Shown piece by piece: positions 20,550-63,050 of a stretch of 64,000 nucleotides of DNA; within the stretch, counting starts at the first letter, position 1; each line of letters begins with the position of its first letter. Position numbers and translations under genes: made by a program. The stretch covers positions 367-64,366 of the forward strand of contig NW_026869102.1 in NCBI RefSeq assembly GCF_020745735.1, written 5' to 3'. This DNA is from Hemiscyllium ocellatum. Its lineage: Eukaryota. The notes beneath the pieces are model-generated. The model searched no databases and was not told where the DNA came from. It saw only the letters and a list, made by a program, of their open reading frames with translations.

Positions 20550-20930
20550 CCCACCGTGCCGAAGGGGAACACCTCTACAACGTATTCGCCAAAGGCGGAT
20601 ACCCGCGCAACTTCATCAACAGATGCCGCAGGGACGAGGGCACGCCGCAGGGACGAGGGCACGCCGCAGGGACGAGGGCACGCCGCGAGCCAAAGGGGCT
20701 GGCCACACTCCCATACATCAGGAGCATTTCTGAACTGACCGCCAGACCGCGGTGACCACTAGGACTCATAACAGCACCCAAACCAACAGCCACCCTCAGG
20801 CAGGCACCCACCCACTCACCAGGACAAGGGACCCACCACCCAGCATGAGCAACCCCAATGCAGTGGGCAACACCCCAGTGCAAGCACTGCCCAGCACAAC
20901 CAGGAAGACAGCTGACCAGCCCCACCCGTG
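20550..20930 (+). mobile_element. PLE fragment (RT-EN linker region)
   Basis: It encodes EHLYNVFAKGGYPRNFINRCRRDEG...PKGLATLPYIRSISELTARP, matching EHLYKVFAKNGYPRNFINRCL...PKGLATLPYIRSVSELTARL of the PLE at 22.9-23.1 kb. Confidence 0.45.
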
Positions 20931-20984
20931 ACTGACAGCTGCCTGGACCAATGGGAGCCACGGATCCCCGGGGCTGGGTGGGTG

Positions 20985-21495: not shown

Positions 21496-22155
21496 GCCTT
21501 TTCCTGGTGTTATTTATTGTATCGCTTCCTCGGGCAGCTCTCTGCACCTTCTCCGCGTGAAAAAGTTGTTCCTTTGTAAATGTTTGACCTTTGACCCTCT
21601 GGTTCTTGCCCACTGACCCCCCCATGACCCTATAAACCTCTATAAGGTTATCCCTCAGCCTCCCCCCTTCAGCTCAAACCCTCCAACATCCTTGTGAACC
21701 TTTCCCCTCTCACCCTTAACCTGTGACCCTCTAGTTTTGTCCTCCCTCACCACCCCCTGAGGGATAATACCTTGACCCTTCACCTTATCCATGACCCCCA
21801 TGACCCTATTAACCTCTATAGGGTCATCCCTCAGCCTCTTCCCTTCAGCTCAGACCCTCTAACATCCTTGTGAACCTTTCCCCTTCCCACCATGAACCTG
21901 TACCTCTAGAGTCATAGAGATGTACAGCACGGAAACAGACCCTTCGGTCCAACCTGTCCGTGCTGACCCAGTTATCCCAACCCAATCCATTCCCACCTGC
22001 CAGCACCCGGCCTCTATCCCTCCAAACCCTTCCTATTCCTATACCCACCCAAACGCCCCTTAAATGTTGCAGTCGTACCAGCCTCCACCACTTCCTCTGG
22101 CAGCTCATTCCATACACGTACAACCCTCTGGGTAAAAAAGTTACCCCTTAGGTCC
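21496..22155. repeat. copy of KIF22 intron-1 proximal sequence with internal about 100 bp tandem repeats and an L2 3' tail
   Basis: It is the reverse complement of 49.49-50.09 kb. It contains the motif tacagcacggaaacagacccttcggtcc. Confidence 0.5.
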
Positions 22156-27244: not shown

Positions 27245-28920
27245 TGCCTAACCATGCTGTGGGTCATGTAGCAGGGCCAATCCCCCCAACCCCGAACACG
27301 GTGTGTCATGTAGTGGGACCAATCCCCCCCCAACCCCAAACACGGTGGGTCATGTAGTGGGGCCAATTCCCCCCAACCCCAAACACGGTGGGTCATGTAG
27401 TGGGACCAATTCCCCCCAACCCCGAACACAGTGGGTCATGTAGTGGGGCCAATTCCCCCCAACCCCAAACACGGTGGGTCATGTAGCAGGGCCAATTCCC
27501 CCCAACCCCAAACACGGTGGGTCATGTAGTGGGACCAATTCCCCCCAACCCCGAACACGGTGGGTCATGTAGCAGGGCCAATTCCCCCCAACCCCGAACA
27601 CGGTGGGTCATGTAGTGGGGCCAATTCCCCCCAACCCCAAACACAGTGGGTCATGTAGTGGGGCCAATTCCCCCCAACCCCAAACACGGTGGGTCATGTA
27701 GCAGGGCCAATCCCCCCAACCCCAAACACGGTGGGTCATGTAGTGGGGCCAATTCCCCCCAACCCCGAACACGGTGGGTCATGTAGTGGGGCCAATTCCC
27801 CCCAACCCCAAACACGGTGGGTCATGTAGCAGGGCCAATTCCCCCCAATCCCAAACACAGTGGGTCATGTAGTGGGGCCAATTCCCCCCAACCCCAAACA
27901 CAGTGGGTCATGTAGTGGGGCCAATTCCCCCCAACCCCAAACACGGTGGGTCATGTAGCAGGGCCAATTCCCCCCAATCCCAAACACAGTGGGTCATGTA
28001 GTGGGGCCAATTCCCCCCAATCCCAAACACAGTGGGTCATGTAGTGGGGCCAATTCCCCCCAACCCCGAACACAGTGGGTCATGTAGCCGGGCCAATTCC
28101 CCCCAACCCCGAACACGGTGGGTCATGTAGTGGGGCCAATTCCCCCCAACCCCGAACACAGTGGGTCATGTAGCAGGGCCAATTCCCCCCAATCCCAAAC
28201 ACAGTGGGTCATGTAGTGGGGCCAATTCCCCCCAATCCCAAACACAGTGGGTCATGTAGTGGGGCCAATTCCCCCCAACCCCGAACACAGTGGGTCATGT
28301 AGTGGGGCCAATTCCCCCCAACCCCGAACACAGTGGGTCATGTAGCCGGGCCAATTCCCCCCAACCCCGAACACGGTGGGTCATGTAGTGGGGCCAATTC
28401 CCCCCAACCCCGAACACAGTGGGTCATGTAGCAGGGCCAATTCCCCCCAATCCCAAACACAGTGGGTCATGTAGTGGGGCCAATTCCCCCCAATCCCAAA
28501 CACAGTGGGTCATGTAGTGGGGCCAATTCCCCCCAACCCCGAACACAGTGGGTCATGTAGTGGGGCCAATTCCCCCCAACCCCGAACACAGTGGGTCATG
28601 TAGCAGGGCCAATTCCCCCCAACCCCAAACACGGTGGGTCATGTAGCAGGGCCAATTCCCCCCAATCCCAAACACAGTGGGTCATGTAGTGGGGCCAATT
28701 CCCCCCAACCCCGAACACAGTGGGTCATGTAGTGGGGCCAATTCCCCCCAACCCCAAACACAGTGGGTCATGTAGTGGGGCCAATTCCCCCCAACCCCGA
28801 ACACGGTGGGTCATGTAGCGGGGCCAATTCCCCCCCAACCCCAAACACGGTGGGTCATGTAGTGGGGCCAATTCCCCCCAACCCCGAACACGGTGGGTCA
28901 TGTAGTGGGACCAATTCCCC
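27245..28920. repeat. 46-47 bp satellite (about 36 copies) inside the KIF22 intron between exons 12 and 13
   Basis: The unit is cacggtgggtcatgtagtggggccaattccccccaaccccaaa, with A/G and tag/cag variants. At 28920 it ends directly against a reverse-oriented SINE head. Confidence 0.9.
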
Positions 28921-43499: not shown

Positions 43500-45150
43500 A
43501 ATATCCCTACTTAGAGTCAGAGAGATGGACAGCACGGAAACAGACCCTTCGCTCCATCCCGAACAAATAGCCTAACCTAATCTCGTCCCATTTGTCAGCA
43601 CTAGGCCCATTTGCCTCAAACCCTTCCTATTCATATACCCATCCAGATGCCTTTTAAAATGCTCCAATCGTACCAGCCTCCACCACTTCCTCTGGCAGCT
43701 CATTCCATACATGCATCATCCTCTGGCTGAAACAGTTGCCCCTTAGATCCCTTTTATATCTTTCCCCTCTCACCCGAAACCGCTGACCTCTAGTTCTGGA
43801 CTCCTCCATCCCAGGGAAAAGACTTGGCCTATTACCCCTATCCACACCCATCGTGATTTTATAAACCTCCATAAAGTCACCCCTTCAGTCTCCGACGCTC
43901 CAGGGGAAACAGCCCCACCTATTCAGCCTTTCCCTACAGCTCAAACCCTGGCAACATCCATCTTTCCAATAGGAAGGAGATCAGAACTGCATGCAATATT
44001 CCAACAGTGGCCTAACCAATGTCCTGTCCAGCCACAACATGACCCTCCCAACTCCTATACTTAACACTCTGCCCTACAAAGGAAAGCATACCAAACACCT
44101 TCTTCACTATCCTATCCACTTGGGACCCCACTTTCAAGGAGCTATGAACCTGCACTGTTGTTCTACAACACTCTTGGACCTTACCATTAAGCGTATAAGT
44201 CCTGCTAAGATTTGCTTTCCCCAAAATGCAGCACCTCACGTTTACCCAAGTTAAACTCCATCTGCCACTCCTCAGCCCATTGGCCCAGCTGATCAAGATC
44301 CCATTGTAATCTGAGGTAACCTACTTCACTGTCCACTACACCTCCAATTATGGTGTCACCATCCAACTATACCTCCTACGTTCACATCCAAATCATTTAT
44401 ATAAATGCCGAAAAGTAGTGGTCCCAGCACCGATCCTTGTGGCACTCCACTGGGCACAGGCATCCAGTCTGAAAAACAACCCTCCACCACCACCCTCTGT
44501 CTTCTCCCTTCAAGCCTGTTCTGGATCCAAATGGCTAGTTCTCCCTGTATTCCATGAGATCTAACCTTGCTAACCAGTCTCCCATGGGGAACCTTGGGAA
44601 ACACCTTACTGAAGTCCATATAGATCACGTCCACTGCTCTGCCCTCCTTTGGGACCAACAGGCCTGGGTTCAAATCCCACTTGTCCCAGAAACTTTTATT
44701 AGCGCCTCTGAACAAGCGAATTACCAAACATTGAACCAAATACTAAAATGTACAAGCAAAATTAAGTAAGAGCATGTTAAGGTCAAAATGTTAGTGGATG
44801 GGGAACTGATGAGCCCCAGCCAGAAGCCAGCTCTTAAATACAACTTACTCTTGATCAACTCTGGAGCTATTCCGGCATACCTTTCAAACAAACATCACTT
44901 CCAGGCCGACACTCTCTGGATGGAGGTGAAGGGAGGAGTCTGCTGGCTTGCAACGCTGAGCGATACCAACAGCATGTCCCAATCTCTCTCCACAGGAACG
45001 TTTTCCCAAGCCTCCACAACCCAGCCCAGAGTGACCAGATGTTTCAGGATTAAATTCCATCTGCCACTTCTCTGCCAAGTCTCCACCCTATCCATCTATC
45101 TATTTATCTCTATCCCACTGAATCCTTTGGCCATCTCAGGATGGTGAGGA
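43500..45150 (-). mobile_element. L2-clade LINE fragments (3' end at 43500-43980, RT plus 3' portion at 43990-45150) in KIF22 intron 1
   Basis: Minus ORFs 43654..43872 (..MEVYKITMGVDRGN..), 44012..44296, 44356..44739 ([50 protein letters not shown]...[21 protein letters not shown]), and 44895..45095. Confidence 0.65.
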
Positions 45151-45293
45151 GGGGTATTATCACTGCTGAGTGTTAACTCGGATCTCTGCAATTGTGCTCT
45201 GTTCTGACCTTACAGCCACATCAGTCCCAGCCAGGAGGTGGTGGGACGGTGGGCATGGGTCTGTCAGTGTAGGGGCACCTGTAGGACACTCAC

Positions 45294-45507
45294 TTGTACT
45301 GCATGGATTCTGTCCGGCTCCTCCAGTTCACAAGCTCCAGCGAGCGGGTGTCCAGGCCACGCACACAGGGGCCCTCCTGCTGCTCATCCTCTGTGGACTG
45401 GTAGGGTCGGAGCCGGACCACCACCTTCACCCGGGGGTGATGGGAACTGGCCATCTTCCTAAAGGGCTGCACATCCGCAGGAGGTAGGTTAGACATTGTC
45501 AACTGCA
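45294..45507 (-). CDS. KIF22: KIF22 first coding exon (ATG at about 45496)
   Basis: MSNLPPADVQPFRKMASSHHPRVKVVVRLRPYQSTEDEQQEGPCVRGLDTRSLELVNWRSRTESMQY plus AA, then donor gtgagtg. Compare human KIF22 ...[41 protein letters not shown]. Confidence 0.85.
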
Positions 45508-46789
45508 CTGGATGGAGAAAGAGAGAAAAAGATAAAAACAGTTAATAATATGGTCATTACTGCTGAGGGAGAGCTTGTTGGATGTGAGTACCACTGGCTG
45601 ACCCAGCATTTACCAGCCATCTCTCATTGCCCCTTGAGAAGATGGTGGTCAGCTCCCTCTTTGAACCACTGCAGTCCATGTGCTGTAGGTAAACCCACAA
45701 TGCCCTGAGGGAAGGATTTCCAGGATTTTGATCCAACACCACTGAAGGAACGGCGACGTATTCCAAATCTCGATGGTGAGGGGCACGGAGGGGAACTTGC
45801 AGGGGGTGGAGTTCCCATGTATCTGCAGCCCTTGTCCTTCTCAATGGAAGGGGCCACAGGTTTGGAAGGTGTTGGTGCAGGAGCTTTGGCAAACTCCTGC
45901 AGTGCACCTTGTAGATGATACACACTGCTGCTGGTAGTGGAGAGTGTGGATGTGGTACCAGTCAAGTTACTTTGTTCAGGTTAGGGGTCAAGCCTCAAGT
46001 GTTGGAGCTGTGCCCATCCAGACAAGTGGGGAATATTCTATCACACTCCCACCTTGTACTTGGTAAACATTAGACAGGCTTTGGGGAAGCCAGGAGCTGA
46101 ATTACTGGCTGTAGGGTTCCCAGTTTCTGATCTGTTCGAGTAACCGCAGTATTTGTATGGAGAGTCCAGTTCAGCTTCTGATAAAAGGTAACCCCCAGGA
46201 TGTTGGTAGCGGGGGATTCTATGATAGCAACACCACCGAATGTCACGAGGCAGTGGTTAGATTGTCTCCAATAGGAGAGTCATTGCCTAGCACTTGTGCA
46301 ATGCGAATATCACTTGCCACTTGTCAGCCCAAACCTGAACAGAATCCAGGTCTTGTTGCTTCTGGACTGCTTCAGTATCTAAGAAGTTGTGAAAGCTGCT
46401 GAACATTGTGCACTCATTGGCCAACGTCCCCACTTCTGACCTTACAGCAGAGACAAGGTCAGCGATAAAGCAGCTGAAGCTGGTTGGCTCCAGGGCATGA
46501 TCCTCAGGAGGTCCTCCAGGCATGTCCTGGAATTGAGAGGACTGGCCTCCTATGTGCCAGGGAAGTTCTCCATCCCCATCGATTCCAGTTTTACCCAGGC
46601 TCCTTGATGCCACACTTGGTCAAACGTGTCCTTGATGGGGTGTGGGTTGGCAGTGCCTTGAAAGCAGGGTCACAGGTACACAGGAGGGGGTGAAGGCAGC
46701 ATTAAGTACACTTGCCTTTACGAGTCAGTGCATTTAGTCCAGGGGTCATGGCATCAAAATTGGTGGGGTAGTGAACAATGAAGAAAGTT

Positions 46790-47929: not shown

Positions 47930-49480
47930 TGAGTTTTTTTGAAGAAACAACAAAGAAGACTGATGATGGCAGAGCAGTAGATGTGATCTATATGGACTCC
48001 AGTAAGGCGTTCGACAAGGATCCCCATAGGAGACTGATTAGCAAGGTTAGATCTCATGGAATACAGGGAGAACTAGCCATTTGGATACAGAACTGGTTCG
48101 AAGGTAGAAGACAGAGGGTGGTGGTGGAGGCTTGGGAAAACATTCCCGTGGAGAGCGATTGGGACATGCTGTTGGTATCGCTCTGCGTTGCAAGCCAGCA
48201 GACCCCTCCCTTCACCTCCATCCAGAGAGTGTCGGCCTGGAAGTGATGTTTGTTTGAAAGGTATGCCGGAATAGCTCCAGAGTTGATTGAGAGTAAGTTG
48301 TATTTAAGAGCTGGCTTCTGGCTGGGGCTCATCAGTTCCCCATCCACTAACATTTTGACCTTAACATGCTCTTACTTACATTTGCTTGTACATTTTAGTA
48401 TTTGGTTCAATGTTTGGTAATTCACTTGTTCAGAGGCGCTAATAAAAGTTTCTGGGACAAGTGGGATTTGAACCCAGGCCTGTTGGTCCCGAAGGAGGGC
48501 AGAGCAGTGGACGTGATCTATATGGACTTCAGTAAGGTGTTTCCCAAGGTTCCCCATGGGAGACTGGTTAGCAAGGTTAGATCTCATGGAATACAGGGAG
48601 AACTAGCCATTTGGATCCAGAACTGGCTCAAAGGTAGAAGACAGAGGGTGGTGGTGGAGAGTTGTTTTTCAGACTGGAGGCCTGTGACCAGTGGAGCGCC
48701 ACAAGGATCGGTGCTGGGCCCTCTACTTTGTCATTTACGTAAATGATTTGAATGCGAGCATAAGAGGTACAGTTAGTAAGTTTGCAGATGATACCAAAAT
48801 TGGAGGTGTAGTGGACAGCAAAGAGGGTTACCTCAGATTACAACAGGATCTGGACCAGGTGGGCCAATGGGCTGAGAAGTGGCAGATGGAGTTTAATTCA
48901 GATAAATGTGAGGTGCTGCATTTTGGGAAAGCAAATCTTAGCAGGACTTATACACTTAATGGTAAGGTCCGAGGGAGTATTGCTGAACAAAGAGACCTTG
49001 GAGTGCAGGTGCATAGCTCCTTGAAAGTGGAATTGCAGGGAGATAGGATAGTGAAAACGTTTGTAATGCTTTCCTTTATTGGTCAGAGTATTGAGTACAG
49101 GAGTTGGGAGATCATGTTGCGGCTGTGCAGGACATTGGTTCGGCCACTGTTGGAACTGCGTGCAATTCTGGTCTCCTCCCTGTCAGAAAGACATTGCGAA
49201 ACTTGAAAGGGTTCAGAAAAGATTTACAAGGATGTTGCCAGGATTGGAGGATCTGAGCTACAGGGAGAGGCTGAACAGGCTGGGGCTGTTTTCCCTGGAG
49301 GGTCAGAGGCTGAGGGGTGACCTTATAGAGGTTTACAAAATTATGAGGGGCATGGATAGGAGAAATAGACCAAGTCTGTTCAATAGGGTCAGGGAGTCCA
49401 GAACTAAAGGGGCATAGGTTTAGGGTGAGGGGGGAAAAGGTATAAAAGGGACCTAAGGAGGTAACTTTTTTACCCAGAGG
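47930..49480 (+). mobile_element. L2-clade LINE RT plus 3' end fragment
   Basis: ORFs 47929..48246, 48402..48746 and 48691..49206 (..DDTKIGGVVDSKEGYLRLQQDLDQVGQWAEKWQMEFNSDKCEVLHFGKANLSRTYTLNGK..), and 49079..49417 (..LGLFSLEGQRLRGDLIEVYKIMRGMDR). Confidence 0.7.
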
Positions 49481-49489
49481 AAGTGGTGG

Positions 49490-50088
49490 AGGCTGGTACA
49501 ACTGCAACATTTAAGGGGCGTTTGGGTGGGTATAGGAATAGGAAGGGTTTGGAGGGATAGAGGCCGGGTGCTGGCAGGTGGGAATGGATTGGGTTGGGAT
49601 AACTGGGTCAGCACGGACAGGTTGGACCGAAGGGTCTGTTTCCGTGCTGTACATCTCTATGACTCTAGAGGTACAGGTTCATGGTGGGAAGGGGAAAGGT
49701 TCACAAGGATGTTAGAGGGTCTGAGCTGAAGGGAAGAGGCTGAGGGATGACCCTATAGAGGTTAATAGGGTCATGGGGGTCATGGATAAGGTGAAGGGTC
49801 AAGGTATTATCCCTCAGGGGGTGGTGAGGGAGGACAAAACTAGAGGGTCACAGGTTAAGGGTGAGAGGGGAAAGGTTCACAAGGATGTTGGAGGGTTTGA
49901 GCTGAAGGGGGGAGGCTGAGGGATAACCTTATAGAGGTTTATAGGGTCATGGGGGGGTCAGTGGGCAAGAACCAGAGGGTCAAAGGTCAAACATTTACAA
50001 AGGAACAACTTTTTCACGCGGAGAAGGTGCAGAGAGCTGGCCGAGGAAGCGATACAATAAATAACACCAGGAAAAGGCCGGTTTTTAC
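49490..50088. repeat. KIF22 intron-1 proximal repeat (about 100 bp internal tandem units plus an L2 tail). It is also present at 21.5-22.15 and 59.1-59.69 kb
   Basis: Near-identical blocks (ggggcgtttgggtgggtataggaataggaagggtttggagggatagaggccgggtgctggcaggtggg...) occur in all three places, always adjacent to the promoter/exon-1 module. Confidence 0.6.
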
Positions 50089-50130
50089 CTGTTTGCTGCT
50101 ATTTTAAACACAACGAGCCTCCTCCCGCCT
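50089..50130 (-). other. KIF22: putative non-coding KIF22 exon 1 (5' UTR). The 5' boundary (TSS) is not determined
   Basis: The minus strand reads ...gtgtttaaaatagcagcaaacag|gtaaaaacc (donor). It lies 4.6 kb upstream of the first coding exon. That exon begins with a strong acceptor, ctttttctctctttctccatccag|TGCAGTTGACAATG. Confidence 0.35.
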
Positions 50131-50870
50131 CCCAACCGCCGCCCGATTTAAATCTGATCAAAGCCCCGCCCCCCCGGCCTGAGCGCCTCATCCTATTGGT
50201 CCTCCGCCACATCCTCACACCGCTCTCATTGGCCGCTCAGCTCAGGAACGCCCCTTTACTCCTGCCCAGACCCTGCCTCCGGTTGGTGCGGGCGCCCGTC
50301 AATCGTAGGCGAGCCCGCTTTTCCCATTCGTCGGATGCCTCATCGCTGATCACGTGTCCCAGCGGCCATTGGACACTCCGCGCGTGTCCGGCCTCTGAAG
50401 CCCCGCCGCCTCCAACTTTGCTGTTGCTTCTCGTCTCATCCTAACGCCCGCCCTCCTGGCCCCATCCTCACTTTCCATTGGCTACCCTTCTCCCCCATCG
50501 GATTGGATGGACTCGTTGCCAGTCATTGGTCTTGCCGTATCAACGTCGGTAATGCCTCGCGCGAAACCAATCAATCCCGCCCACTTCCCGGAGTCCTCCG
50601 CCAACCATTGGCTCCTTCTGTAGCTCCCCAGCGTTATGTGATTCCTATTGGTCCAGACACCTATCAGTCATCTCCAAACTGCCGCCTGCTGCCGCCGCCC
50701 TCTATCAATCAATCCTATGAAGATGACCCTCCCCGCACAGGCCCTCACTCTTTATTGGCTGTTCACGGTGTCAATCGGCCGGCCCCTGCGCGCCATTGGG
50801 CCGTCGCCGCAGCCCATCAGTGTAGGGGGCGTGGTGGGACCCTCCTGTCTCCCGCCCACATTGAGCCTCC
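50131..50870 (-). promoter_or_regulatory. KIF22: KIF22 promoter, a CCAAT-box cluster (at least 10 boxes) with GC boxes and TTTAAA (CHR-like) elements (copy B)
   Basis: It is the reverse complement of copy A, extended distally with further CCAAT boxes (gaccaatagg, gcccaatggcg, cagccaataaag, gattgattgatag). The CpG content is retained. Dense NF-Y plus CHR architecture is typical of G2/M genes such as kinesins. Confidence 0.45.
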
Positions 50871-51049
50871 AGTTGAAGGTGTGGTGGGTGTTGTGGAACT
50901 AACTGTCGAACAGTTGGGATGGTATGAGATGTCTGAAGAAGCTATACCACGTGTCACATTGGCAGTGCATGCTGAATATCAAGCCAAGGATCTGGAACCC
51001 ATGTCCAAATGCTTGATGCCGCTAACTGATTGGGTTTAGACTTAGTTAC

Positions 51050-54000
51050 CCAGCTTACAATATTCACCCTTTGTTGAAGCTTATAGAATCCTGTACCTTG
51101 GATGCTGCCTGACCTGCTGTGCTTTTCCAGCATTTTCAGCTCTGATACTCCAGCATCTGCAGACCTCACTTTCTCCCAGAATTATGTACAGGACAACTGA
51201 CAAGGTGCTACTGGAACATCGGCAGATTGAAAGGTTCCATGGCAGGGAAAAGACAGACCATCTACAGGCTGCAGCGATGCTTGATACTCTACCAGATACC
51301 TTGTGGTCAGCAGGTTCGACGGACGTTGGTCACTGCCAACACGTCACACCAATCACATTCCATTTAATAGACCACACTCCAATTTGGCAGAGACAATACC
51401 CACACAAACCAGAGGCTGAAGCTGGCATTGCCGACACAGTTGAAGGATGTAGGGATACTAGCATCAGTAGCATCAAAGCAGTAGGGGTGCTAGAATCCTC
51501 CCAGTCAGCCTGGAACACTCCTATCTTACCTGTAGAGAAGCAGAATACAGGCAAATATAGGATGGTGCATGATCTTAGACGGATCAATAGAGTCGTTTCT
51601 ACTCCAACAGTTCCAGTCTCAAACCCCTTACACTGCGATGTCTGAGCTGACCCCTGACCATAAGTGGTTCTCGTGCATTGATCTGGCCAACGCGTTCTTC
51701 TGTTTGCCCCGAGCTGATCATTTGAGGGACATTTTTTCGTTCACATACAAAGGCCAACAACTTCGTTATACAAGGGTCCCTCAAGGATTCATTTTGTCGC
51801 TTGGGGTGTTTAATCAGGTACTGAAACAGCAGCTGAAGGATCTGACGCTCCCAAACAGGGTGGTATTGATCCAGTATGTGGATGATATTCTTTTGACGGC
51901 ACCCGACCATGTTTCTTGTTTGGCAGCTACAAAGTTGTTGCTGCTTCTCCTGTATAACAGTGGTTTCAAAGTTTCATGGGCTAAATTGCAATGTTGCAGA
52001 CAAACAGTGTCTTTTTTGGGTAGAGTTATTTCCGCTAAGGGAACAGGTGTGTCTCCGTCCCATAGATCCTCCATTCTGCATCATACCAAACCAGTCACTG
52101 TAAAAGACATGCTCATTTCTTGGGTTGGCAGGATACAGTAGACAATTCGTTGCATTATATGGGGAGCTCACTTTCCCTCTAAAGGGCCATGGTAAATGAA
52201 CAAGGTATGAGAAATTTGTCAGCCCATTTGCAGTGGACCACGGAGAGAGACGAAAGTTTCATATCTCTTAAACAGGCCCTAACGCGGGCTGCTGATTTAG
52301 CGGTCCTGGATTACAAAGAGCCATTTTTCCTCTATTTCTGAAAAAGTACATACAATAAATGGCATTCTTTTTCAGAAAAAAGGGGGTGGCAGGCAGGTGC
52401 TAATGTATGTAAGTGTTACCCTTGACCCAATAGGAGGACAGACACCCACCATGTACAAGACATGCAGCAGGGGTAACAAAAATTCTCCAAAAGGTAGCAC
52501 ATAGTCATGGGCGATTCACTAACAGTACTGACGACATTATATTATAGTGGCCAATGTGAACTCAACAGCCTTCACAATGGCATCACTGCAGCAAACCAGG
52601 TTAGAGAAAATCCTGAATGCACCACATAATTTTTACACATGAAGAATTAACATGGCTGATAACATGGGAGAAAGAGAGCCACATATGTGCCCTTTCCTCA
52701 CACAGACGTCAAAATTAGGGCAGATTTACAGGCAATTCCATTAGTAGACCCAGAAGAAGCGCTGTTCACAGATGGTTGCTGTTACAGACATCCCACTTAG
52801 CTTTAATGTCCATTAGAAGCTCAGTAAACTATCACAGGGTTCACCCCGTACGAGCTAACAGGGCAGCAGTTCCCAGGACCAGGAGCTGGAATACAGATGT
52901 TAGAGGAAGGAGGAGCCTCTCTATGGTACAAACCTTATTATGACCAACTAACAGCTTTGGTCTCAGCTTTCTCCACACAGGTTGGTTCAGGAAAGGGGGA
53001 CCTACAGAGCCAGGCACCATCTACCACAGACTGGGTCCTGTGGAAGGTGAACAAATGGAAAAGGTCGGAGCCACGGTGGGCAGGACCTTACAAGGTGGTG
53101 GAAAGGACATCTCATGTGGTCTGACGACAGGGGAAAGGAGAAAGCTGTTACCATTGGAGCCAGTGTGCAGCTACGGAACCGCCAATGAGAACTCTAGAAC
53201 AAATAAGAACAGAAAGAGTAGAAGGGTCTTTAACTTTTAACTTTTGTGCAAAGGATATCATGTCTATCTTTGTAACTAGCCCACATTACCCCAGGCTGTT
53301 GGGGTTGGGAGTTTTTGCTATTATTTTATGGATAAGTGTTATGCCACTGTTAATAAGGGTATCAACCGCAAGGGACAAACAGACGAGGGAGAAAGTCCCA
53401 GGAATAAGAGATCAACAGGACAAGAGATGGACAGATGTTTAAGGGAGGCAGGGAGCCGGGTGCACAGACATGATAAAACGGGTGGTACAACATACCAGTT
53501 TGACTTGTGCCAAGTAATAGACTGTGGCCAAAATACAGGGAGCTGGAGGGAGTATGATGTATACCTTTGCATCTACACCATTGATTATCACCCATGCCCA
53601 TCGTGGGATGATGTATTAACATGGACTGGGGTACAATGGACACCTAAGAAGTTGTCACCCTCGGATAATAGATGGGAAGTTCAAGACCATGTGAGCCTGA
53701 CTAAGGGATCATTCCTCAGAGCTTAAAAAATCCACTCTTGTTAACCCTGACAAAATTCGACACTAACCCTGGTCCCAAAGAGGTACAGATTTACTGAGGG
53801 AGTGATGATAGAAGCTTTTATTTTGTAATAGATGTGGATACCATGGGACTAGTGACGGTAAACCTTAGTGGACCCTCCTACGAACCAGCCACAAACCGAA
53901 AACACAACAAGCATGGTGGTAGAACCAAGTTCAGGAGTTGTGACAGTAGACTATAACAACCTCCTGAGAAGGGACATTATTACATTAGCCACCTGGTATG

Positions 54001-54540
54001 GGGATAAGAACGTACGGCTGGACTGGATGACAGCGACCGCAATCTCAATGAATAGGAGTAATTGTGTCGCGTGTTCCTCAGCCAGGCCAACCCTATTTAC
54101 CACCCCAGCCCCATTGTTCCCTAATGTAGACCCAGCAGGATTTCACTGCATGATGGCTCTCACCATGCAGGCAGACCCCCCCAAATTGTACCACCTTAAG
54201 TGTTATTTTTCCTCCTGTAAAGAATTCCATGTTACCTCCAGTGTTTACCCCAAGGGCCAACAATTACACTTGTTTCACTTAAAGATCGAATACAGTCTTG
54301 GGAGACATGCCCACTGACTGGTGTCAGGATACGATTAATGTAACCGGCTGGCAGAATGCTAGCACAATGGTTTGGGCCAGAGCTGATCTTTTTTGGTACT
54401 GTGGAGATAGATCCCTACAGATTAGTCTACCTCCAGATTGGGCTGGAACCTGTGCAATGGTCAGGCTAGGGGTACCCTGAACACTTAGAAAGACTACAGG
54501 GACTAGATCAGCATGCACGAATACGCAGGGATCTGTTTGA
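51050..54540 (+). mobile_element. endogenous retrovirus internal fragment (class I gamma/epsilon-like; partial pro-pol, IN C-terminus, env SU). No LTRs or gag were recognised
   Basis: ORF 51184..51645 encodes ...SAWNTPILPVEKQNTGKYRMVHDLRRINRVV, the gammaretrovirus-type RT N-terminus. ORF 51569..52141 carries ..LIQYVDDILLTAP.. (the YVDD motif). ORF 52897..53124 carries ..RWAGPYKVVERTSHVV (IN C-terminus). ORFs 53868..54480 are env-like, with the CVAC (CXXC) motif and ..LFWYCGDRSLQISLPPDWAGTCAMV. Confidence 0.75.
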
Positions 54541-54633
54541 TGTCACATCTGGCTCAACCACTTACACAGATGCAGGAAGTGTTCCTCGCGGTGTACCTGA
54601 TGAATATAAGTTGGCAGACCAGCACAATTGAAA

Positions 54634-54834
54634 ATGTCTAACCTACCTCCTGCGGATGTGCAGCCCTTTAGAAGATGGCCGCTTCCCATCACCGCTGGGT
54701 GAAGGTGGTGGTCCGGCTCCGACCCTACCAGTCCACAGAGGGCGAGCAGCAGGAGGGCCCCTGTATGCGTGGCCTGGACACCCGCTCGCTGGAGCTTGTG
54801 AACTGGAGGAGCCGGACAGAATCCATGCAGTACA
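54634..54834 (+). pseudogene. KIF22: inverted pseudo-copy of the KIF22 first coding exon
   Basis: Near-identical to the reverse complement of 45294-45496. It has a 1 bp deletion (ttaggaag to ttagaag), which frameshifts the reading frame, and a mutated donor (gtgagt to gtgact). The flanking intron sequence is also duplicated (54543-54960 matches 45170-45510). Confidence 0.8.
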
Positions 54835-54959
54835 AGTGACTGTCCTACAGGTGCCCCAACACTGACAGACCCATGCCCACCATCCCACCACCTCCTGGCT
54901 GGGACTGATGTGGCTATAGGGTCAGAACAGAGCACAATTGCAGAGATCACAGTTAACAC

Positions 54960-57125
54960 TCAGCAGTGATAATACCCCTTCTCACCATCCTGAGATGGCC
55001 AAAGGATACAGTGGGATAGAGATAAATTCAAAGTTTGGGAGTAGATTTGTAGCTCGGGTACTCGTTGTGGTTCTGTTCGCTGAGCTGGGAGTTTGTGTTG
55101 AAAACTACTGACACCCAGAAGCGGCAGAGACAAGCCACTATAAATGCCGGAGGAAACATCACAGAAGCGCTTCATAGGAGGCTCCCAAGCACTAAGGATG
55201 TCACCTAGAAAGGGGACGAAACATTTGCAACACAAACTCCCAGCTCAGCTAACAGAACCACAACGAGCACCCGAGCTACAAATCTTCTCCCAAACTTTGA
55301 ACACCTACGGGCGAGAGACGCCAAGACAAGCCAGGAAATGGGAATCCTATGCCAACCACCTAAGCCCCACACACGAACAACTCCAGTTCCTGCATCAACG
55401 CTGAAGGATGAGAATCCTTCCACCATGTGTCAGATACAGACCACCAGTCAACAATTCACAAGCCAGGGACACAGCCAGACAGAACGGACTCAGGATGATC
55501 CAGGTAATGATTCCAGACGCTCACAGACTTCACAAATACAGACAAGAAATTGCACACCAAAAATCATTAATTTCAAAAACCACCAATCAGGAATGGACCC
55601 AGACCGTAGAACAGGCCGTAGTACCAAACAGGACTACACACCACATAAAAACAGTGCTAAAAGAAAAGTGGCCAAACTAACAACGAAGACACCACAACAC
55701 ACACCTGGGTTAAAAACCTCTCCCACAGACACGGAAAGAACAATACTGGCCAAGGGACTCAACTACAACCACAGGAACACCAAGACAGCAGACTTCCTAG
55801 CAGCACTAGAATGCACACTCGGGAACAATGGATTGACAGAAGAGACACCAAACAGCGAGACAAAGTATCGTACCTCTGATAACAAGGAAAAGACACTCTC
55901 AACACCAAGGAGAGAGAAGTACTAAAATCACTAAGAAATGATAGGAACGTAATCGTGCTGCCAGCAGACAAAGGCAGAATGACAGTCATACTGGACAAAG
56001 CAGAGTACATCCAAAAGGCACAACTACTTGCAGATACCAACATCTACCCAAAGAGAGAGTCTGACCCCACCCCACAGCTCACCAATAGGATAAACACACT
56101 GAGGAATCTACAAAAAAACGGACAGATAACCAGGTCTGACCTACAAAGAATGAAACCGGAAAGGAACACCACCCCCAGATTCTATGGACTACCTAAAGTA
56201 CACAAACCAGACATCCCACTCAGACCCATAGTATCACTACCAGGGACACCATCACACAAACTGGCTAAAGAGCTACAGCAGAAACTGAAACACCTGATCA
56301 GCAGATCCAAACAATCTATACAATCAACAGGAATTCTTGGACATCAGAAATATACACAGACAAGGAAGAAACCATGGTCTCATTCGATGTAATGGCACTG
56401 TTCACCTCTATCGACAAAACCCTAGCCAGAGAAACAATATCCAACCTGCAGGACATACAGAACAGACAACAGGACGTTGAACCTATTAACAAAGACGGCA
56501 TACTTAAACTACTGGACCTGTGCCTCACAACACACTTCACATTCAACAACCAGATATACGAACAAATCAACAGAACACCCATGGGCTCACCGATCTCTGG
56601 ACTCACAGCAGAAGCAGTAATGCAAAGGTTAGAACAAACAGTCTTACTGCAAATACAACCCAAACTCTGGGTCAGATATGTGGGTGACACCTTTGTAATC
56701 ATTAAAAACAGAAATAGAGAACACACACCGGATCATCAACGCCACCCTCACAGGAATCTGATTCACGAGAGAGGAAGAAAAGGACAAACAGCTCCCATTC
56801 CTAGACGTGATGGTACAGAGAACACCGAATGGAGAATTCACTACAAAGGTATACAGGAAAGCCACACACACAGACTAAGTCCTGAACTATGAAAGCAACC
56901 ACCCCAACCCACACAAACAAAATTGCATCAGGACACTATTCAAAAGGGCCACAACATGCTGCAGCACACCAGAACTACAAAAAGAGGAACACAAGGTATT
57001 CACCAAAAACAGATACTCGCACAATTTCATCAACAGATGCCTAAGGGAGAGACAACGGAACGAGGACATGCCGCAACCCAAGTTGAAAGGGTTCTAAAAA
57101 GATTTGAAAGATATAAAGGGACCTA
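54960..57125 (+). mobile_element. degenerate Penelope-like element (3' tail of one copy at 54960-55300, then an RT region with frameshifts)
   Basis: ORFs 55955..56892 encode ..HFTFNNQIYEQINRTPMGSPISGLTAEAVMQRLEQTVLLQIQPKLWVRYVGDTFVIIKN.., the PLE RT (compare 22.4-22.7 kb). At 55.17-55.22 there is a mutated hammerhead-like core (CUAAGGAUG). Confidence 0.6.
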
Positions 57126-57129
57126 AGGG

Positions 57130-57360
57130 GCAACTGTTTCACCCAGAGGGTGATGCATGTATGGAATGAGCTGCCAGAGGAAGTGGAGGAGGCTGGTACG
57201 ATTGGAACATTTAAAAGGCATCTGGATGGGTATATGAATAGGAAGGGTTTGAGGCAAATGGGACAAGATTAGGTTAGTCTATTTGGTCAGGATGGACTGA
57301 AGGGTCTGTTTCCGTGCTGTACATCTCTGACTCTAAGTAGGGATATTACTAGTAATCAAA
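57130..57360 (+). mobile_element. L2 3' tail
   Basis: ..ggaagtggaggaggctggtacgattggaacatttaaaaggcatctggatgggtatatgaataggaagggtttgag...gtctgtttccgtgctgtacatctctgactc. It is the reverse complement of 43500-43700, so it belongs to the inverted duplication. Confidence 0.6.
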
Positions 57361-57374
57361 ACCCTGAGGGGCTC

Positions 57375-57537
57375 TTGTTATAATGTGATGGTGCCTTGGG
57401 TGTGTGGGGGGGGGGGGGAAAAACACGTCACAGCTGGAATTCAGTATGTGAATTCAGTGAAACCGATCCTATCCCATGTCCTGAATGGACAGAATGCCAG
57501 TGTCTTTGCCTATGGCCCTACGGGAGCAGGTGGGTGA
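57375..57537 (+). pseudogene. KIF22: inverted pseudo-copy of KIF22 coding exon 2 (diverged 5' part with a G-rich insertion, intact 3' part plus donor)
   Basis: ..tatgtgaattcagtgaaaccgatcctatcccatgtcctgaatggacagaatgccagtgtctttgcctatggccctacgggagcag|gtgggtgagtg matches exon 2 at 42546-42640. The flanking intron (57545-57945) matches 42130-42545 in reverse complement. Confidence 0.75.
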
Positions 57538-57952
57538 GTGACTGTCCACTGTCCTGCCTCTTTCCTTAGTGACCAGCCCCCTCAGAGCCTACAGCCTTAA
57601 AACCTGTCCTTTAACATTTAGACTAAAATGTCATGTTGCATTGTCAAACACACTTGCTGCACACCAGAAAATAGACAGGCAGGGAGGTTAAGGTCATGAA
57701 GGACATCAGTGAATCTGTGTCAACAGAACACAGTGATAACATTCACAGCTGTTCCTTTGTGAAATTAATAACTGTTTGATTCTGGCCTTGAAACAAAACT
57801 ATCAATTAACTTCTCTCCCCAATTATTGTCCTTCACTGTTGTCTGTCTAGTTAAGAATGCGCAGGGTTTTTGTAAACCTTCTTGTATAAAGGAAGACAGT
57901 TTGGGACCGTTCAGCACAGTACCCCGTCAGGGTTGTAGAAGAGCTGATCTCC

Positions 57953-58151
57953 CCACTAGAGACCACGCACCAAGACTTGGTGATTCGAGGGGACCAAGAC
58001 AAGAACATCTCCGTCCCCGACCTGACACAGCAGCACATCACCAGCTTCGTGGAGTTTGAGCAGTTCTTTCTGCCAGCCACACAGACAGACCACAGCCTGC
58101 ACCAAGTTGAATTGTCGGTCCAGTCGCAGCCACTCTGTGCTCCTGATTAAG
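57953..58151 (+). pseudogene. KIF22: inverted pseudo-copy of KIF22 coding exon 4 (switch I). Exon 3 is deleted
   Basis: It matches 41080-41282 in reverse complement, with a 2 bp deletion (acaaagacggacc to acagacagacc) that frameshifts it. A deletion spanning original 41290-42120 removes the GKTHTM exon. Homology ends about 10 bp after the exon donor. Confidence 0.75.
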
Positions 58152-58779
58152 GTCCAGCTAAGACGGGGCAGCCCATTGCTGTCGGGTCCTGTATTCTGGT
58201 TAGCCCGTTCCCCGGGGTTTCCACCCACGGGTGAATCCATTAACAGCGCCGTTGCCAGGCTTCCTCTCAAACCTGCGCCCGTAGACCCTCGGCTCACCGC
58301 AGGGCTGGAAGTGACCGCTGTTCCTCACCCTGCCATCTCCCGCCTGCAGCCTCCCGGGTGTTGCCTGGTGGTAGTATCCACCCTCAGGGCCTGGGAGCCT
58401 CCCCAGGGGCCGGGAGGAGCTGCCTTCACTTCCCAGAGCCCGGCCCGCGGGCCGATAGTATCCACTGTCCCCTCCGCCTCCACCACCGCCGTCTTAACGC
58501 CGGACAGTAGTTTGTACCAACGCCATTGGCTGAGCCCAGGCTCCTGTGTTCATCCACCTCACGATTGACCGAGTTCTCCATGTCCCTCTTCAGCACCGTA
58601 TCTGTTACACAGCCCCAGACCTACAGGCAGGGAGACAGACAGACAGACAACACCTGGGCATTGACACCAGAGAGACAGGCCACTGAAGGCAGCTACCATC
58701 ATACTTCCCTCCATCAGTCAGAGCATCAATTCTCGGAGGTGGGACATCCTGCTGGTCGGGTATAACAGGCAGGGGTGTG

Positions 58780-59050
58780 GGCTGGGGGGGGGAACGAGGG
58801 GAAGAGCACGGGGGGAGGGGAGTGGGAGGGAAGAGAGAACAGTGCTGGGGCGGGAGGGAAAGAGGGGAGACAGCAGAGGAGTGGAGGGGGGAAAGGGGGG
58901 AGGGTAGGGGAGTGGAGGGGGGAGAAAGGAGGGAGGGGACAGTGCAGGTGGGAGTGAAGGGACAGTGGGGTGCAAACGATTGGGGAGGGGGGGTTTAAGG
59001 GAAAGAGAGGACCGTGGGGGTGGGGGGCGGAAGGGAAGAGAGTTTGTGAG
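58780..59050. repeat. purine (GA/GGA)-rich low-complexity tract
   Basis: Read directly from the sequence. ORFs 58718-59119 are artefacts. Confidence 0.8.
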
Positions 59051-59689
59051 ATGTGGTACACTCACTTCCCCCTCCCTCCCTTCTGGAGGGAGTGGTGGAG
59101 GCTGGGACGACTGCAACATTTAAGGGGCGTTTGGGTGGGTATAGGAATAGGAAGGGTTTGGAGGGATAGAGGCCGGGTGCTGGCAGGTGGGAATGGATTG
59201 GGTTGGGATAACTGGGTCAGCACGGACAGGTTGGACCGAAGGGTCTGTTTCCGTGCTGTACATCTCTATGACTCTAGAGGTACAGGTTCATGGTGGGAAG
59301 GGGAAAGGTTCACAAGGATGTTAGAGGGTCTGAGCTGAAGGGAAGAGGCTGAGGGATGACCCTATAGAGGTTAATAGGGTCATGGATAAGGTGAAGGGTC
59401 AAGGTATTATCCCTCAGGGGGTGGTGAGGGAGGACAAAACTAGAGGGTCACAGGTTAAGGGTGAGAGGGGAAAGGTTCACAAGGATGTTGGAGGGTTTGA
59501 GCTGAAGGGGGGAGGCTGAGGGATAACCTTATAGAGGTTTATAGGGTCATGGGGGGGTCAGTGGGTAAGAACCAGAGGGTCAAAGGTCAAACATTTACAA
59601 AGGAACAACTTTTTCACGCGGAGAAGGTGCAAAGAGCTGCCCGAGGAAGCGATACAATAAATAACACCAGGAAAAGGCATAGTTTCCGG

Positions 59690-60292
59690 CCGGTTTTTAA
59701 CCTGTTTGCTGCTATTTTAAACACAACGAGCCTCCTCCCGCCTCCCAACCGCCGCCCGATTTAAATCTGATCAAAGCCCCGCCCTCCTCCCGGCCCGAGC
59801 GCCAGCGCCTCGCCTTCCATTGGCTACCCTCCGGGAGGTGGGCGGGGGTGATTGGTTGCGCGCGCGGGGCATTACCGACGTTGATACGGCAAGAGCAGTG
59901 ACTGGCAACGGGTTTATCCAATCCGATGGGGGAGAAGGGGTAGCCAATGGGAAGCGAGGTTAGGGCCGGGAGTGCGGGTGTTGGGGGGGGGTGAGAGTTG
60001 GAGGCGGCGGGGCCTCAGAGGCCGGACACGCGCGGAGTGCCCAATGGCCGCTGGGCCACGTGATCCGCGGTGAGGCATCCGATTGACGGGCGGCCGGACC
60101 AACCAGAGGCAGGTACTGGGTAAAGGGGCGTTCCTGAGCTGAGCGGCCAATGAGAGCGGTGTGGGGATGCGGCGGAGGACCAATAGGACGAGGCGCTCGC
60201 GCTCGGGGGGGGCGGGGCTTTGGTCAGATTTAAATCGGGCGGCGGTTGGGAGGCGGGAGGAGGCTCGTTGTGTTTAAAATGGCAGCAAACAG
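59690..60292. promoter_or_regulatory. copy C of the promoter plus exon-1 module, arranged as a head-to-head palindrome
   Basis: 59690-59805 carries exon 1 plus the proximal promoter in minus orientation (..cctgtttgctgctattttaaacacaacgagcc..gatttaaatctgatcaaagccccgcc). 59810-60292 carries the full CCAAT-cluster promoter plus exon 1 in plus orientation, ending ..gtgtttaaaatggcagcaaacag|gtaaaaacc at about 60292. Confidence 0.5.
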
Positions 60293-60339
60293 GTAAAAAC
60301 CGGCCTCTTACCTGGTGTTATTTATAGTAATCTGAGGTC

Positions 60340-62060
60340 ACTGTACACTACACCCATTATGGTGTCACCATCCAACTATATCCCCTACATTCACATCCAA
60401 ATCATGTATATAAATGACAAATTAGTGGACCCAGCACCGATCCTTGTGGCGCTCCACTGGGCACAGGCCTCCAGTCTGAACAACAACTCTCCACCACCAC
60501 CCTCTGCCTTTCCCTACAGCTCAAACCCTGGCAACATCCATCTTTCCAATAGGAAGGAGATCAGAACTGCATGCAATATTCCAACAGTGGCCTAACCAAT
60601 GTCCTGTCCAGCCACAACATGACCCTCCCAACTCCTATACTTAACACTCTGCCCTACAAAGGAAAGCATACCAAACACCTTCTTCACTATCCTATCCACT
60701 TGGGACCCCACTTTCAGGGAGCTATGAACCTGCACTGTTGTTCTACAACACTCTCGGACCTTACCATTAAGCGTATAGGTCCTGCTAAGATTGGCTTTCC
60801 CCAAAATGCAGCACCTCAAGTTAAACTCCATCTGCCACTCCTCAGCCCACTGGCCCAGCTGATCAAGATCCCATTGTAATCTGAGGTAACCTACTTCACT
60901 GTCCACTACACCTCCAATTATGGTGTCACCATCCAACTATACCTCCTACGTTCACATCCAAATCATTTATATAAATGCCGAAAAGTAGTGGACCCAGCAC
61001 CGATCCTTGTGGTGCTCCACTGGGCACAGGACTCCAGTCTGAACAACAACCCTCCACCGCCACCCTCTGTCTTTCCCTACAGCTCAAACCCTGGCAACAT
61101 CCATCTTTCCAATAGGAAGGAGATCAGAACTGCATGCAATATTCCAACAGTGGCCTAACCAATGTCCTGTCCAGCCACAACATGACCCTCCCAACTCCTA
61201 TACTTAACACTCTGCCCTACAAAGGAAAGCATACCAAACACCTTCTTCACTATCCTATCCACTTGGGACCCCACTTTCAAGGAGCTATGAACCTGCACTG
61301 TTGTTCTACAACACTCTCGGACCCTACCATTAAGCGTATAGGTCCTGCTAAGATTTGCTTTCCCCAAAATGCAGCACCTCACGTTTACCCAAGTTAAACT
61401 CCATCTGCCACTCCTCAGCCCATTGGCCCAGCTGATCAAGATCCCATTGTAATCTGAGGTAACCTACTTCACTGTCCACTACACCTCCAATTATGGTGTC
61501 ACCATCCAACTATACCTCCTACGTTCACATCCAAATCATTGATATAAATGCCGAAAAGTAGTGGACCCAGCACCGATCCTTGTGGCACTCCACTGGGCAC
61601 AGGCCTCCAGTCTGAAAAACATCTCTCCACCGCCACCCTCTGTCTTTCCCTACAGCTCAAACCCTGCCAACATCCATCTTTCCAATAGGAAGGAGATCAG
61701 AACTGCATGCAATATTCCAACAGTGGCCTAACCAATGTCCTGTCCAGCCACAACATGACCCTCCCAACTCCTATACTTAACACTCTGCCCTACAAAGGAA
61801 AGCATACCAAACACCTTCTTCACTATCCTATCCACTTGGGACCCCACTTTCAAGGAGCTATGAACCTGCACTGTTGTTCTACAACACTCTCAGACCTTAC
61901 CATTAAGCGTATAGGTCCTGCTAAGATTGGCTTTCCCCAAAATGCAGCACCTCACGTTTACCCAAGTTAAACTCCATCTGCCACTCCTCAGCCCATTGGC
62001 CCAGCTGATCAAGATCCCATTGTAATCTGAGGTAACCTACTTCACTGTCCACTACACCTC
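60340..62060 (-). repeat. tandem triplication (about 573 bp unit) of an L2 3'-end fragment
   Basis: Identical ORFs recur with a period of about 570 bp: 60571, 61134 and 61707 on plus, and 60592 and 61155 on minus (..FGKANLSRTYTLNGKVRECCRTTVQVHSSLKVGSQVDRIVKKVFGMLSFVGQSVKYRSWEGHVVAGQD = L2 RT C-terminal region). The boundary motif gtcactgtccactacacctccaattatggtgtcacc occurs at about 60340, 60895, 61468 and 62035. Confidence 0.8.
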
Positions 62061-62069
62061 CAATTATGG

Positions 62070-63050
62070 TGTCACCATCCAACTATACCTCCTACATTCA
62101 CATCCAAATCATTTATATAAATGCCGAAAAGTAGTGGACCCAGCACCGATCCTTGTGACACTCCACTGGGCACAGGCCTCCAGTCTGAAAAACAACTCTC
62201 CACCACCACCCTCTGTCTTCTCCCTTCAAGCCTGTTCTGGATCCAAATGGCTAGTTCTCCCTGTATTCCATGAGATCTAACCTTGCTAACCAGTCTCCCA
62301 TGGGGAACCTTGGGAAACACCTTACTGAAGGCCATATAGATCACGTCCACTGCTCTGCCCTCCTTCGGGACCAACAGGCCTGGGTTCAAATCCCACTTGT
62401 CCCAGAAACTTTTATTAGCGCCTCTGAACAAGCGAATTACCAAACATTGAACCAAATACTAAAATGTACAAGCAAAAGTAAGTAAGAGCATGTTAAGGTC
62501 AAAATGTTAGTGGATGAGCCCCAGCCAGAAGCCAGCTCTTAAATACAACTTACACTCGATCAACTCTGGAGCTATTCCGGCATACCTTTCAAACAAACAT
62601 CACTTCCAGGCCGACACTCTCTGGACGGAGGTGAAGGGAGGAGTATGCTGGCTTGCAACGCAGAGTGATACCAACAGCATGTCCCAATCTCTCTCCACAG
62701 GAACATTTTCCCAAGCCTCCACCACCACCCTCTGTCTTCTACCTTCGAACCAGTTCTGTATCCAAATGGCTAGTTCTCCCTGTATTCCATGAGATCTAAC
62801 CTTGCTAATCAGTCTTCTATGGGGATCCTTGTCGAACGCCTTACTGGAGTCCATATAGATCACATCTACTGCTCTGCCATCATCAGTCTTCTTTGTTGCT
62901 TCTTCAAAAAACTCAATCAAGTTTGTGAGACAGGATTTCCCACGCACAAAGCCATGCTGACTATCCCAAATCAGTCCTTGCCTTTCCAAAGACATGTACA
63001 TCCTGTCCCTCCTCATTCTCTCTAATTTTGTCTTCCCTCACCTTGTCCTG
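62070..63050 (-). mobile_element. L2 RT fragment continuous with the tandem array
   Basis: Minus ORFs 62072..62455 and 62600..63016 (..[79 protein letters not shown]..). Confidence 0.7.

Follow-up and report, generated by a model that had tools for sequence, protein, structure and literature searches.

An old class I endogenous retrovirus fragment, probably truncated by microhomology-mediated joining, next to an inverted KIF22 copy in Hemiscyllium ocellatum

In this study, a 64,000-nucleotide stretch of Hemiscyllium ocellatum DNA (NCBI RefSeq assembly GCF_020745735.1, contig NW_026869102.1, positions 367 to 64,366 of the forward strand; hereafter the window, numbered from its first letter) was analysed around a retroviral segment that adjoins an inverted partial copy of the gene KIF22. 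Judged from the sequence, positions 50875-54622 are an inert, decayed fragment of a class I (gamma/epsilon-like) endogenous retrovirus (ERV), whose env gene is joined through the four bases CCAG to the KIF22 copy. The likely explanation is that an old and passive ERV was broken by non-homologous, microhomology-mediated joining in a rearrangement-prone KIF22 locus. An initial annotation of this DNA had placed the ERV at 51050-54640 and proposed that its insertion or deletion might be mechanistically linked to the rearrangement. The ERV itself proved real, while its limits had to be moved, the left one having been misplaced by 175 bp and the right one by 14-18 bp; the link was retained only in the weak sense that a rearrangement breakpoint lies inside the ERV, with no causal role for the element.

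To delimit the fragment, it was compared with the loci L001-L005, consisting of DNA fetched around related genes; L001, L002, L004 and L005 are copies from Chiloscyllium plagiosum and C. punctatum. L005, from C. plagiosum, represents a reasonably complete provirus that contains gag (including a CCHC knuckle), protease (PR), reverse transcriptase (RT), RNase H, integrase (IN), env and pieces of long terminal repeats (LTRs). Its open reading frames (ORFs) carry RVP, RVT_1, rve, MLVIN_C and a TLV_coat-type Env, and the window covers this gene order from the linker between PR and RT to the start of the transmembrane subunit (TM). The fragment aligned with L005 in four blocks (Table 1), and was also collinear with L004, L001 and L002. 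When the L005 ORFs were used as tblastn queries, repeated frame changes and many stops were met along the fragment. In its translations, Pfam matched RVT_1 (E=2.2e-23) and RT_RNaseH_2 (E=1.6e-9), and weakly MLVIN_C in the integrase part (E=0.006-0.01), while a homology search matched the env part to a gamma-type Env of Chiloscyllium (C. punctatum) with E=3e-111 and 70% identity. These significant retroviral pol and env matches, together with the further Env homologues described below, bear out the earlier description of a class I-like pol-env fragment with a YVDD-containing RT, an IN C-terminus and a CXXC motif in the surface subunit (SU).

The reported lack of LTRs and gag was also upheld. 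In the whole 64 kb, blastn (word sizes 11 and 7) and tblastx searches with L001-L005 as queries detected nothing of this ERV family's LTR, gag, PR core or distal TM. The LTRs of L002, L003 and L005 had no similarity anywhere in the window, and gag, whose CCHC knuckle is evident in L005 (zf-CCHC, E=6e-7), is absent from it. Since both ends of the segment are internal to a provirus, and neither flanking LTRs nor a target-site duplication accompany it, the segment is a fragment of a family member and not a complete provirus. Being without an LTR, it contributes no promoter.

Table 1. Features of the ERV fragment and its surroundings, with the aligned positions in the C. plagiosum provirus L005
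Feature	Position in window	Strand	Position in L005	Remarks
CCAAT-rich, GC-rich promoter-like DNA adjoining the ERV left end	50400..50874	-		8 CCAAT boxes within 476 bp (average over the whole window, 3 per kb)
Whole ERV-derived fragment	50875..54622	+		Both ends truncated, without LTRs, decayed; collinear with L005
Alignment block 1	50875-51096		5996-6217	86% identity
Alignment block 2	51201-52797		6377-7957	88.5% identity
Alignment block 3	52797-53240		8862-9311	89.6% identity
Alignment block 4	53244-54622		9373-10780	84% identity
C-terminal half of putative CNPase-like 2H phosphoesterase domain (between PR and RT)	50875..51096	+		Second HxT motif here RVTL
SINE-like insertion, 81 bp, 5'-truncated	51097..51177	+		12-bp target-site duplication 51085-51096 / 51178-51189, AGAATCCTGTAC/AGAATTATGTAC
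RT	51190..52110	+		YVDD; single frameshift near 51627; 83-90% amino acid identity to L005 RT
RT connection and RNase H remnants, badly decayed	52111..52797	+		8-11 stops in high-scoring segment pairs; ends at internal deletion junction 52797
IN C-terminal part	52797..53240	+	8862-9311	89.6% DNA identity; 82% amino acid identity to L005 IN C-terminus
env: signal region, complete SU, cleavage site, first ~31 amino acids of TM	53245..54622	+		Ends ...KLADQ
Right junction, CCAG common to the ERV env parent and the KIF22 intron parent	54619..54622	+		From three-way comparison
Inverted partial KIF22 copy B, first block	54619..55027	+		3' end of intron 1, ATG exon (54675-54839), start of next intron
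Rest of KIF22 copy B	57106..58167	+		Exon 2 (57445-57531), disrupted exon 4 (57935-58166); exon 3 missing; K2P 0.044-0.064 to copy A

The right junction was placed by comparing the window with its ERV relatives and with the matching part of the KIF22 gene (copy A). The DNA homology of the window env to L001, L002 and L005 stops at 54622, and homology to KIF22 begins at 54619, giving a 4-bp overlap: the ERV relatives read ...GGCAGACCAG|ATAGCAGCAGGATTTGAGAAT, the window ...GGCAGACCAG|CACAATTGAAAATGTCTAACC, and the reverse complement of KIF22 copy A ...TCTCCATCCAG|TGCAGTTGACAATGTCTAACC. The chance of at least four shared bases at a random join is 0.016. In copy A, the CCAG point marks the end of a polypyrimidine tract that resembles the splice acceptor of the ATG exon. 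The 13 bases that follow CCAG (54623-54635) match copy A at only 9 positions, compared with a background divergence of ~5% (P about 0.003-0.016, post hoc), and the four mismatches could represent error-prone synthesis at the junction, filler DNA or chance. A continuation of the ERV to 54637 with small deletions was also considered; the 13 bases fit env only with three gaps, whereas copy A fits them without a gap at 9 of 13, and the case was left ambiguous. Owing to this excess of mismatches, the right junction can be placed only within 54619-54637. The initial annotation had described env as truncated against an inverted KIF22 pseudo-exon; that adjacency was confirmed, while its cut at 54636|54637 lay 14 bp too far to the right.

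On the left, ERV sequence starts abruptly at 50875 (...GCCTCCAGTT|GAAGGTGTGG) against non-ERV DNA. As both ends are thus internal proviral sequence set against non-ERV DNA, recombination between LTRs and events at integration ends are excluded. What was found instead is characteristic of microhomology-mediated joining, namely few shared bases between unrelated sequences, and a segment inverted relative to its nearby source, as in a fold-back.

Divergence was used to order the events. Copies A and B of KIF22 differ by a Kimura two-parameter (K2P) distance of 0.044-0.064 in all four aligned blocks, or ~0.025 per copy, and this uniformity is consistent with one old duplication. Measured from the node that joins the Chiloscyllium copies, the private branch of the ERV ranges from 0.06 substitutions per site in RT to 0.095 in env. 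Being longer than the ~0.025 of each KIF22 copy, this branch would put the ERV before the duplication, and the ERV is probably the older of the two unless much of its branch had accumulated before integration.

The order of events and the joining mechanism that we infer for the locus are as follows. A provirus would have integrated upstream of the shark KIF22 promoter, in the orientation opposite to the gene, and would then have decayed, gaining a short interspersed element (SINE) insertion and an internal deletion. Both proviral ends would later have been lost to non-homologous rearrangements in this repeatedly rearranged locus, in the course of which env-internal DNA may have been joined through the 4-bp CCAG to the inverted 5' copy of KIF22, just upstream of the splice acceptor of the ATG exon. 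This right join may have arisen by template switching in the very event that duplicated and inverted KIF22, or it may be the mark of a later microhomology-mediated deletion. The ERV would have been a passive substrate throughout, supplying neither homology nor an integration-related break.

Several points weigh against this history. The order of events is read from branch lengths that also contain pre-integration viral divergence, and from one assembly of one individual. A microhomology of 4 bp is suggestive and falls short of proof. Given the cluster of four mismatches after CCAG, the true junction could lie up to 14 bp further right, or filler DNA could be present. Moreover, two independent truncations, both removing LTRs, need more events than one complex event does.

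Such a single complex event, replication-based and of the type of microhomology-mediated break-induced replication (MMBIR), fork stalling and template switching (FoSTeS) or chromoanasynthesis, would make the ERV piece a templated insertion that never integrated here. A stalled 3' end would have left the KIF22 promoter region and copied 3.7 kb of ERV interior elsewhere, before a second switch, via CCAG, led it onto the opposite strand in KIF22 intron 1 and through exons 1-4 in reverse. The internal position of both ERV ends and the lack of any LTR, gag or TM nearby would be expected from this course, as would the microhomology and inverted orientation at the right junction, the clustering of mismatches just past it and the other fold-back-like structures in the locus; it also requires the fewest local events. 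However, the ERV seems older than the KIF22 duplication and has its own SINE insertion and internal deletion, both of which a donor copy could carry, although no such donor is known. Kilobase-sized templated insertions between loci are uncommon, which also counts against this course. We therefore regard it as unlikely. The same low probability is given to the proposal that one such event of serial template switching brought in the ERV piece at a KIF22 promoter region whose CCAAT/ATTGG-rich modules repeatedly provoke fold-back rearrangements in this shark lineage.

An assembly artefact, in which unrelated sequences would have been joined at a multi-copy ERV within a duplicated region full of repeats to give an arrangement absent from the animal, was judged improbable. 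Dispersed repeats are dense in the window and near-identical blocks reach 97-99% identity, which could favour such a join. Exact-product look-ups of four window ORFs (two spanning junctions and two from KIF22 exons) gave no match, and the junction-spanning ORFs were found in no public assembly or read-set assembly, although such misses show only that these exact ORFs were not called as genes. On the other hand, the window contains no N or gap, the KIF22 copies differ by ~5% with indels and hence are not collapsed haplotypes, and the 4-bp overlap at the junction is clean.

The mechanistic link proposed in the initial annotation, in which the inverted KIF22 duplication would stem from two ERV copies recombining ectopically through their homology, or from an integration site that was wrongly repaired, appears highly improbable. 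All that speaks for it is that the ERV and the KIF22 copy end side by side. Ectopic recombination needs ERV or LTR sequence at the partner breakpoint, but no other ERV or LTR sequence of this family is present in the 64-kb window, and the junction connects the ERV to a non-ERV KIF22 intron with which it shares only CCAG and no long identity. Repair at an insertion site would involve LTR ends, whereas the ends here lie in the PR-RT linker and in TM. Further, other inverted or duplicated junctions in the same locus carry no ERV, and the ERV, with a branch longer than the divergence of the KIF22 copies, is probably older than the duplication. The locus thus illustrates that a transposable element adjoining the edge of a duplication is no proof of causation.

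Retroviral transduction, in which a recombinant virus would have captured KIF22 downstream of env as in oncogene capture, has next to no probability: the KIF22 fragment does share the ERV orientation and directly follows env, but the idea was rejected because introns are retained, the copy keeping intron sequence and a splice acceptor remnant and stretching over 3.5 kb with intronic transposable elements, and no LTR follows it.

The pol part of the fragment assigns it to a retroviral group already known from fishes. Among solved structures in the PDB, the window RT ranked closest to the RT of murine leukaemia virus (MLV) and xenotropic MLV-related virus (XMRV) (1e-48 to 1e-50), followed by foamy virus (1e-35) and human immunodeficiency virus (HIV; ~1e-11); it was 50-67% identical to teleost ERV RTs in the homology search, and its YVDD active-site motif occupies 51875-51886. 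The class I placement is this similarity ranking of RT, with the label epsilon-like taken from the literature and not a gamma/epsilon clade read from a tree. The closest protein and DNA relatives of the window repeats came from Chiloscyllium punctatum, C. plagiosum and Hemiscyllium ocellatum. Some near relatives of the RT and Env bear bacterial labels (P0008, P0067 and P0156; Plesiomonas shigelloides metagenome-assembled genome (MAG), Escherichia coli and Aeromonas salmonicida MAG), and these records most likely represent fish host DNA contaminating bacterial assemblies.

In L005 and several teleost relatives, a domain of ~160 amino acids with two HxT motifs lies between PR and RT; the window keeps the C-terminal half of this domain. 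Pfam alone missed the CNPase-like domain at significance, with LigT_PEase (E=0.25) and 2_5_RNA_ligase2 (E=0.12) as mere hints, so that a structure model and the homology search were needed. CNPase was the sole PDB match of the domain, again a hint only (E=2.1), and the AlphaFold model, which was built from teleost relatives, had a mean predicted local distance difference test (pLDDT) score of 75. The CNPase-like reading agrees with reported CNPase-carrying fish retroviruses, which were described by Basta et al. (2009), as summarised in PMC4977317. Taken together with env, the fragment can be placed, by similarity, in a fish lineage with a putative CNPase-like domain in pol and a gamma-type Env.

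The SINE-like insertion that interrupts the start of the fragment was not present in L004 at the 51097 site; in L005 the same repeat had inserted independently, a few bases away, and shows a duplication of its own. The core of the repeat was also found in L001, L004 and L005. Further downstream, an internal deletion of ~0.9 kb at 52797 removed the end of RNase H and most of IN, and nothing in the window corresponds to the L005 interval 7958-8861 (~0.9 kb, part of it an assembly gap).

Pfam was blind to the SU of the window env, which was recognised by homology search. Besides the match to the Chiloscyllium Env, full-length Env proteins of teleosts with TLV_coat, a domain matched in the homologues P0116 and P0123, aligned to 93% of the window env query at 43-47% identity. 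The CXXC motif of SU is CVAC (54063-54074), within the block NCVACSSARPTLFTTPAP, which is largely conserved, with some homologues deviating. The furin-type cleavage site between SU and TM is RIRR (54518-54529) and aligns with RIRR, RKRR and RRRR of homologues. In the alignment, the homologues run on past KLADQ with IAAGFENLP..., followed by an immunosuppressive domain (ISD)-like motif and CX6CC, which are represented by LDMLLAEKGGVC and CSMFGDQCC in P0115, P0116, P0118, P0119 and P0123; both motifs are missing from the window env, which stops ~31 amino acids into TM. Env proteins of spiny-rayed teleosts (Echeneis, Myripristis and Scomber; P0116, P0118, P0119 and P0122) aligned with the shark Env along almost its entire length, at 43-50% identity. 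This likeness between shark and teleost Env would fit cross-class transmission, and would also fit a report that percomORF-type Env clusters with ERVs of cartilaginous fishes.

The element is an ordinary member of an already known kind. ERVs with gamma-type Env (ERVs-GTE) were catalogued in six cartilaginous fishes, with >500 copies in three of them, and 46 orthologous groups were reported in Chiloscyllium (bioRxiv 10.1101/2021.11.23.469661); shark ERV diversity had been described earlier (PMC4977317, PMC6001957). The statement in the initial annotation that env-bearing chondrichthyan ERVs are rarely characterised is accordingly out of date (bioRxiv 10.1101/2021.11.23.469661). The window copy shares 84-90% DNA identity with the ERVs-GTE L005, L004, L001 and L002, is collinear with them from the PR-RT linker to TM, and agrees with them in its SU features, which are NCVACSSARPTLFTTPAP and an RxRR cleavage site. 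These relatives have LTRs, gag with a CCHC knuckle, PR, IN, and TM with the ISD-like and CX6CC motifs, whereas the window copy lacks ~4 kb at the 5' end (LTR, gag and PR) and ~1.2 kb at the 3' end (most of TM and LTR), and differs by its ~0.9-kb internal deletion, its private SINE insertion and the host gene DNA joined at both its ends.

Compared with the teleost class I (epsilon-like) retroviruses that carry a CNPase-type domain of cellular origin, the likeness lies in RT, which is 50-67% identical to RTs of teleost ERVs. The window copy differs in its shark host, in keeping only the C-terminal half of the domain, with a degenerate second motif (RVTL), and in that its epsilon-like label comes from literature rather than from a phylogeny with WDSV (walleye dermal sarcoma virus), SSSV (salmon swim bladder sarcoma virus) and ZFERV (zebrafish endogenous retrovirus). 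The shark copies would add a host group to the captured CNPase-like 2H phosphoesterase domain of pol known from teleosts. Gammaretroviruses such as MLV and XMRV provide the best solved-structure relatives of the window RT and share an MLV-type IN C-terminal domain (a weak match), an Env of the TLV_coat type, the CXXC in SU and, in TM of the relatives, CX6CC. In contrast to them, the window ERV has the extra, putative CNPase-like domain and a fish host lineage, and the similarity is distant and does not amount to genus membership read from a tree.

Microhomology-mediated inverted duplications and deletions are known from fold-back template switching, FoSTeS/MMBIR and microhomology-mediated end joining (MMEJ). 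With such events the window shares a partial gene copy that is inverted and lies 9.1 kb from its source, microhomology of 4 bp at a junction, an excess of mismatches on one side of the junction and further inverted structures in the locus. It differs in that the event is old (~5% divergence) and seen in one assembly, and its mechanism is inseparable from that of a later simple deletion. The KIF22 promoter region of this shark provides a small, well-resolved case of repeated inverted rearrangement with a microhomology junction.

The value of the analysis lies mostly in annotation, namely the corrected ERV limits and the assignment of the downstream KIF22-like exon to an inverted pseudogene fragment. 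A complete-looking KIF22 gene was found on the minus strand, where tblastn with KIF22 proteins detected collinear exons from 45433 to 29234; the gene spans about 45460 down to about 29230, and its concatenated exons match KIF22 across vertebrates (E=1e-154). No close shark orthologue placed on a contig emerged from the search with the KIF22 protein. Copy B (54619-58167, plus strand) corresponds to the reverse complement of 45511-41064, 9.1 kb away, and its first block is 95% identical to the reverse complement of 45102-45511 (K2P 0.051). With introns kept and an orientation inverted to that of the real gene, copy B is a true genomic duplicate, and it is a pseudogene fragment that holds only exons 1 and 2 and a disrupted exon 4.

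Positions 55028-57105, inside copy B, are occupied by an RT-bearing retroelement (RVT_1, E=6e-8; motif YGLPKVHK...PLRPIVS). It opens with an inverted repeat at ~55028-55310, exactly where the homology of copy B to copy A ends. Related pieces lie at 22474-23040 and 23504-23658, and in this 22.5-23.7 kb region the 3' part precedes the 5' part.

The CCAAT-rich DNA to the left of the ERV probably belongs to the real minus-strand KIF22 as its putative promoter. In the initial annotation, the 5' side of the ERV was said to abut promoter copy B; promoter-like DNA does touch the ERV, while the homology among the module copies ends near 50670, 205 bp short of it. The core of the module at 50.4-50.9 kb is common to copies near 20.9-21.4 kb and 59.8-60.3 kb. 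Including ~0.9 kb of adjoining DNA, the three copies occupy 20929-22100, 49474-50670 and 59086-60329. Two of them are 98% identical over 946 bp, far above the 95% of the KIF22 copies, and a recent duplication, gene conversion or an effect of the assembly may lie behind this high likeness. The third copy (59-60 kb) is internally inverted around 59.80-59.83 kb.

The view that all duplications in the window are segmental was discarded, as many blocks are dispersed repeat families that also occur in unrelated Chiloscyllium loci (blocks at 43.9-45.0, 47.1-49.7, 57.1-57.3, 59.09-59.28, 60.3-64, 9.4-10 and 21.9-22.4 kb). Locus-specific duplication was accepted for the KIF22 blocks and the promoter modules alone. 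Among the repeats, a 573-bp unit occurs about three times in tandem at 60338-62225, with family copies also at 43923-45021 and 48120-49191; the family is present in both orientations, with 97-98% identity within the window and ~70% in unrelated Chiloscyllium loci. A tandem array at 27146-28920, just downstream of the last KIF22 exon found (29234), repeats a 43-bp unit about 40 times with 92-95% identity. Positions 1-6500 hold ~6 kb of C-rich tandem repeats with a unit of roughly 29 bp and an extreme asymmetry between the strands (GC skew about -0.88, GC 63%). A GC-rich (~61%) stretch at 58168-59085, which separates KIF22 copy B from the third module, has no match elsewhere in the window.

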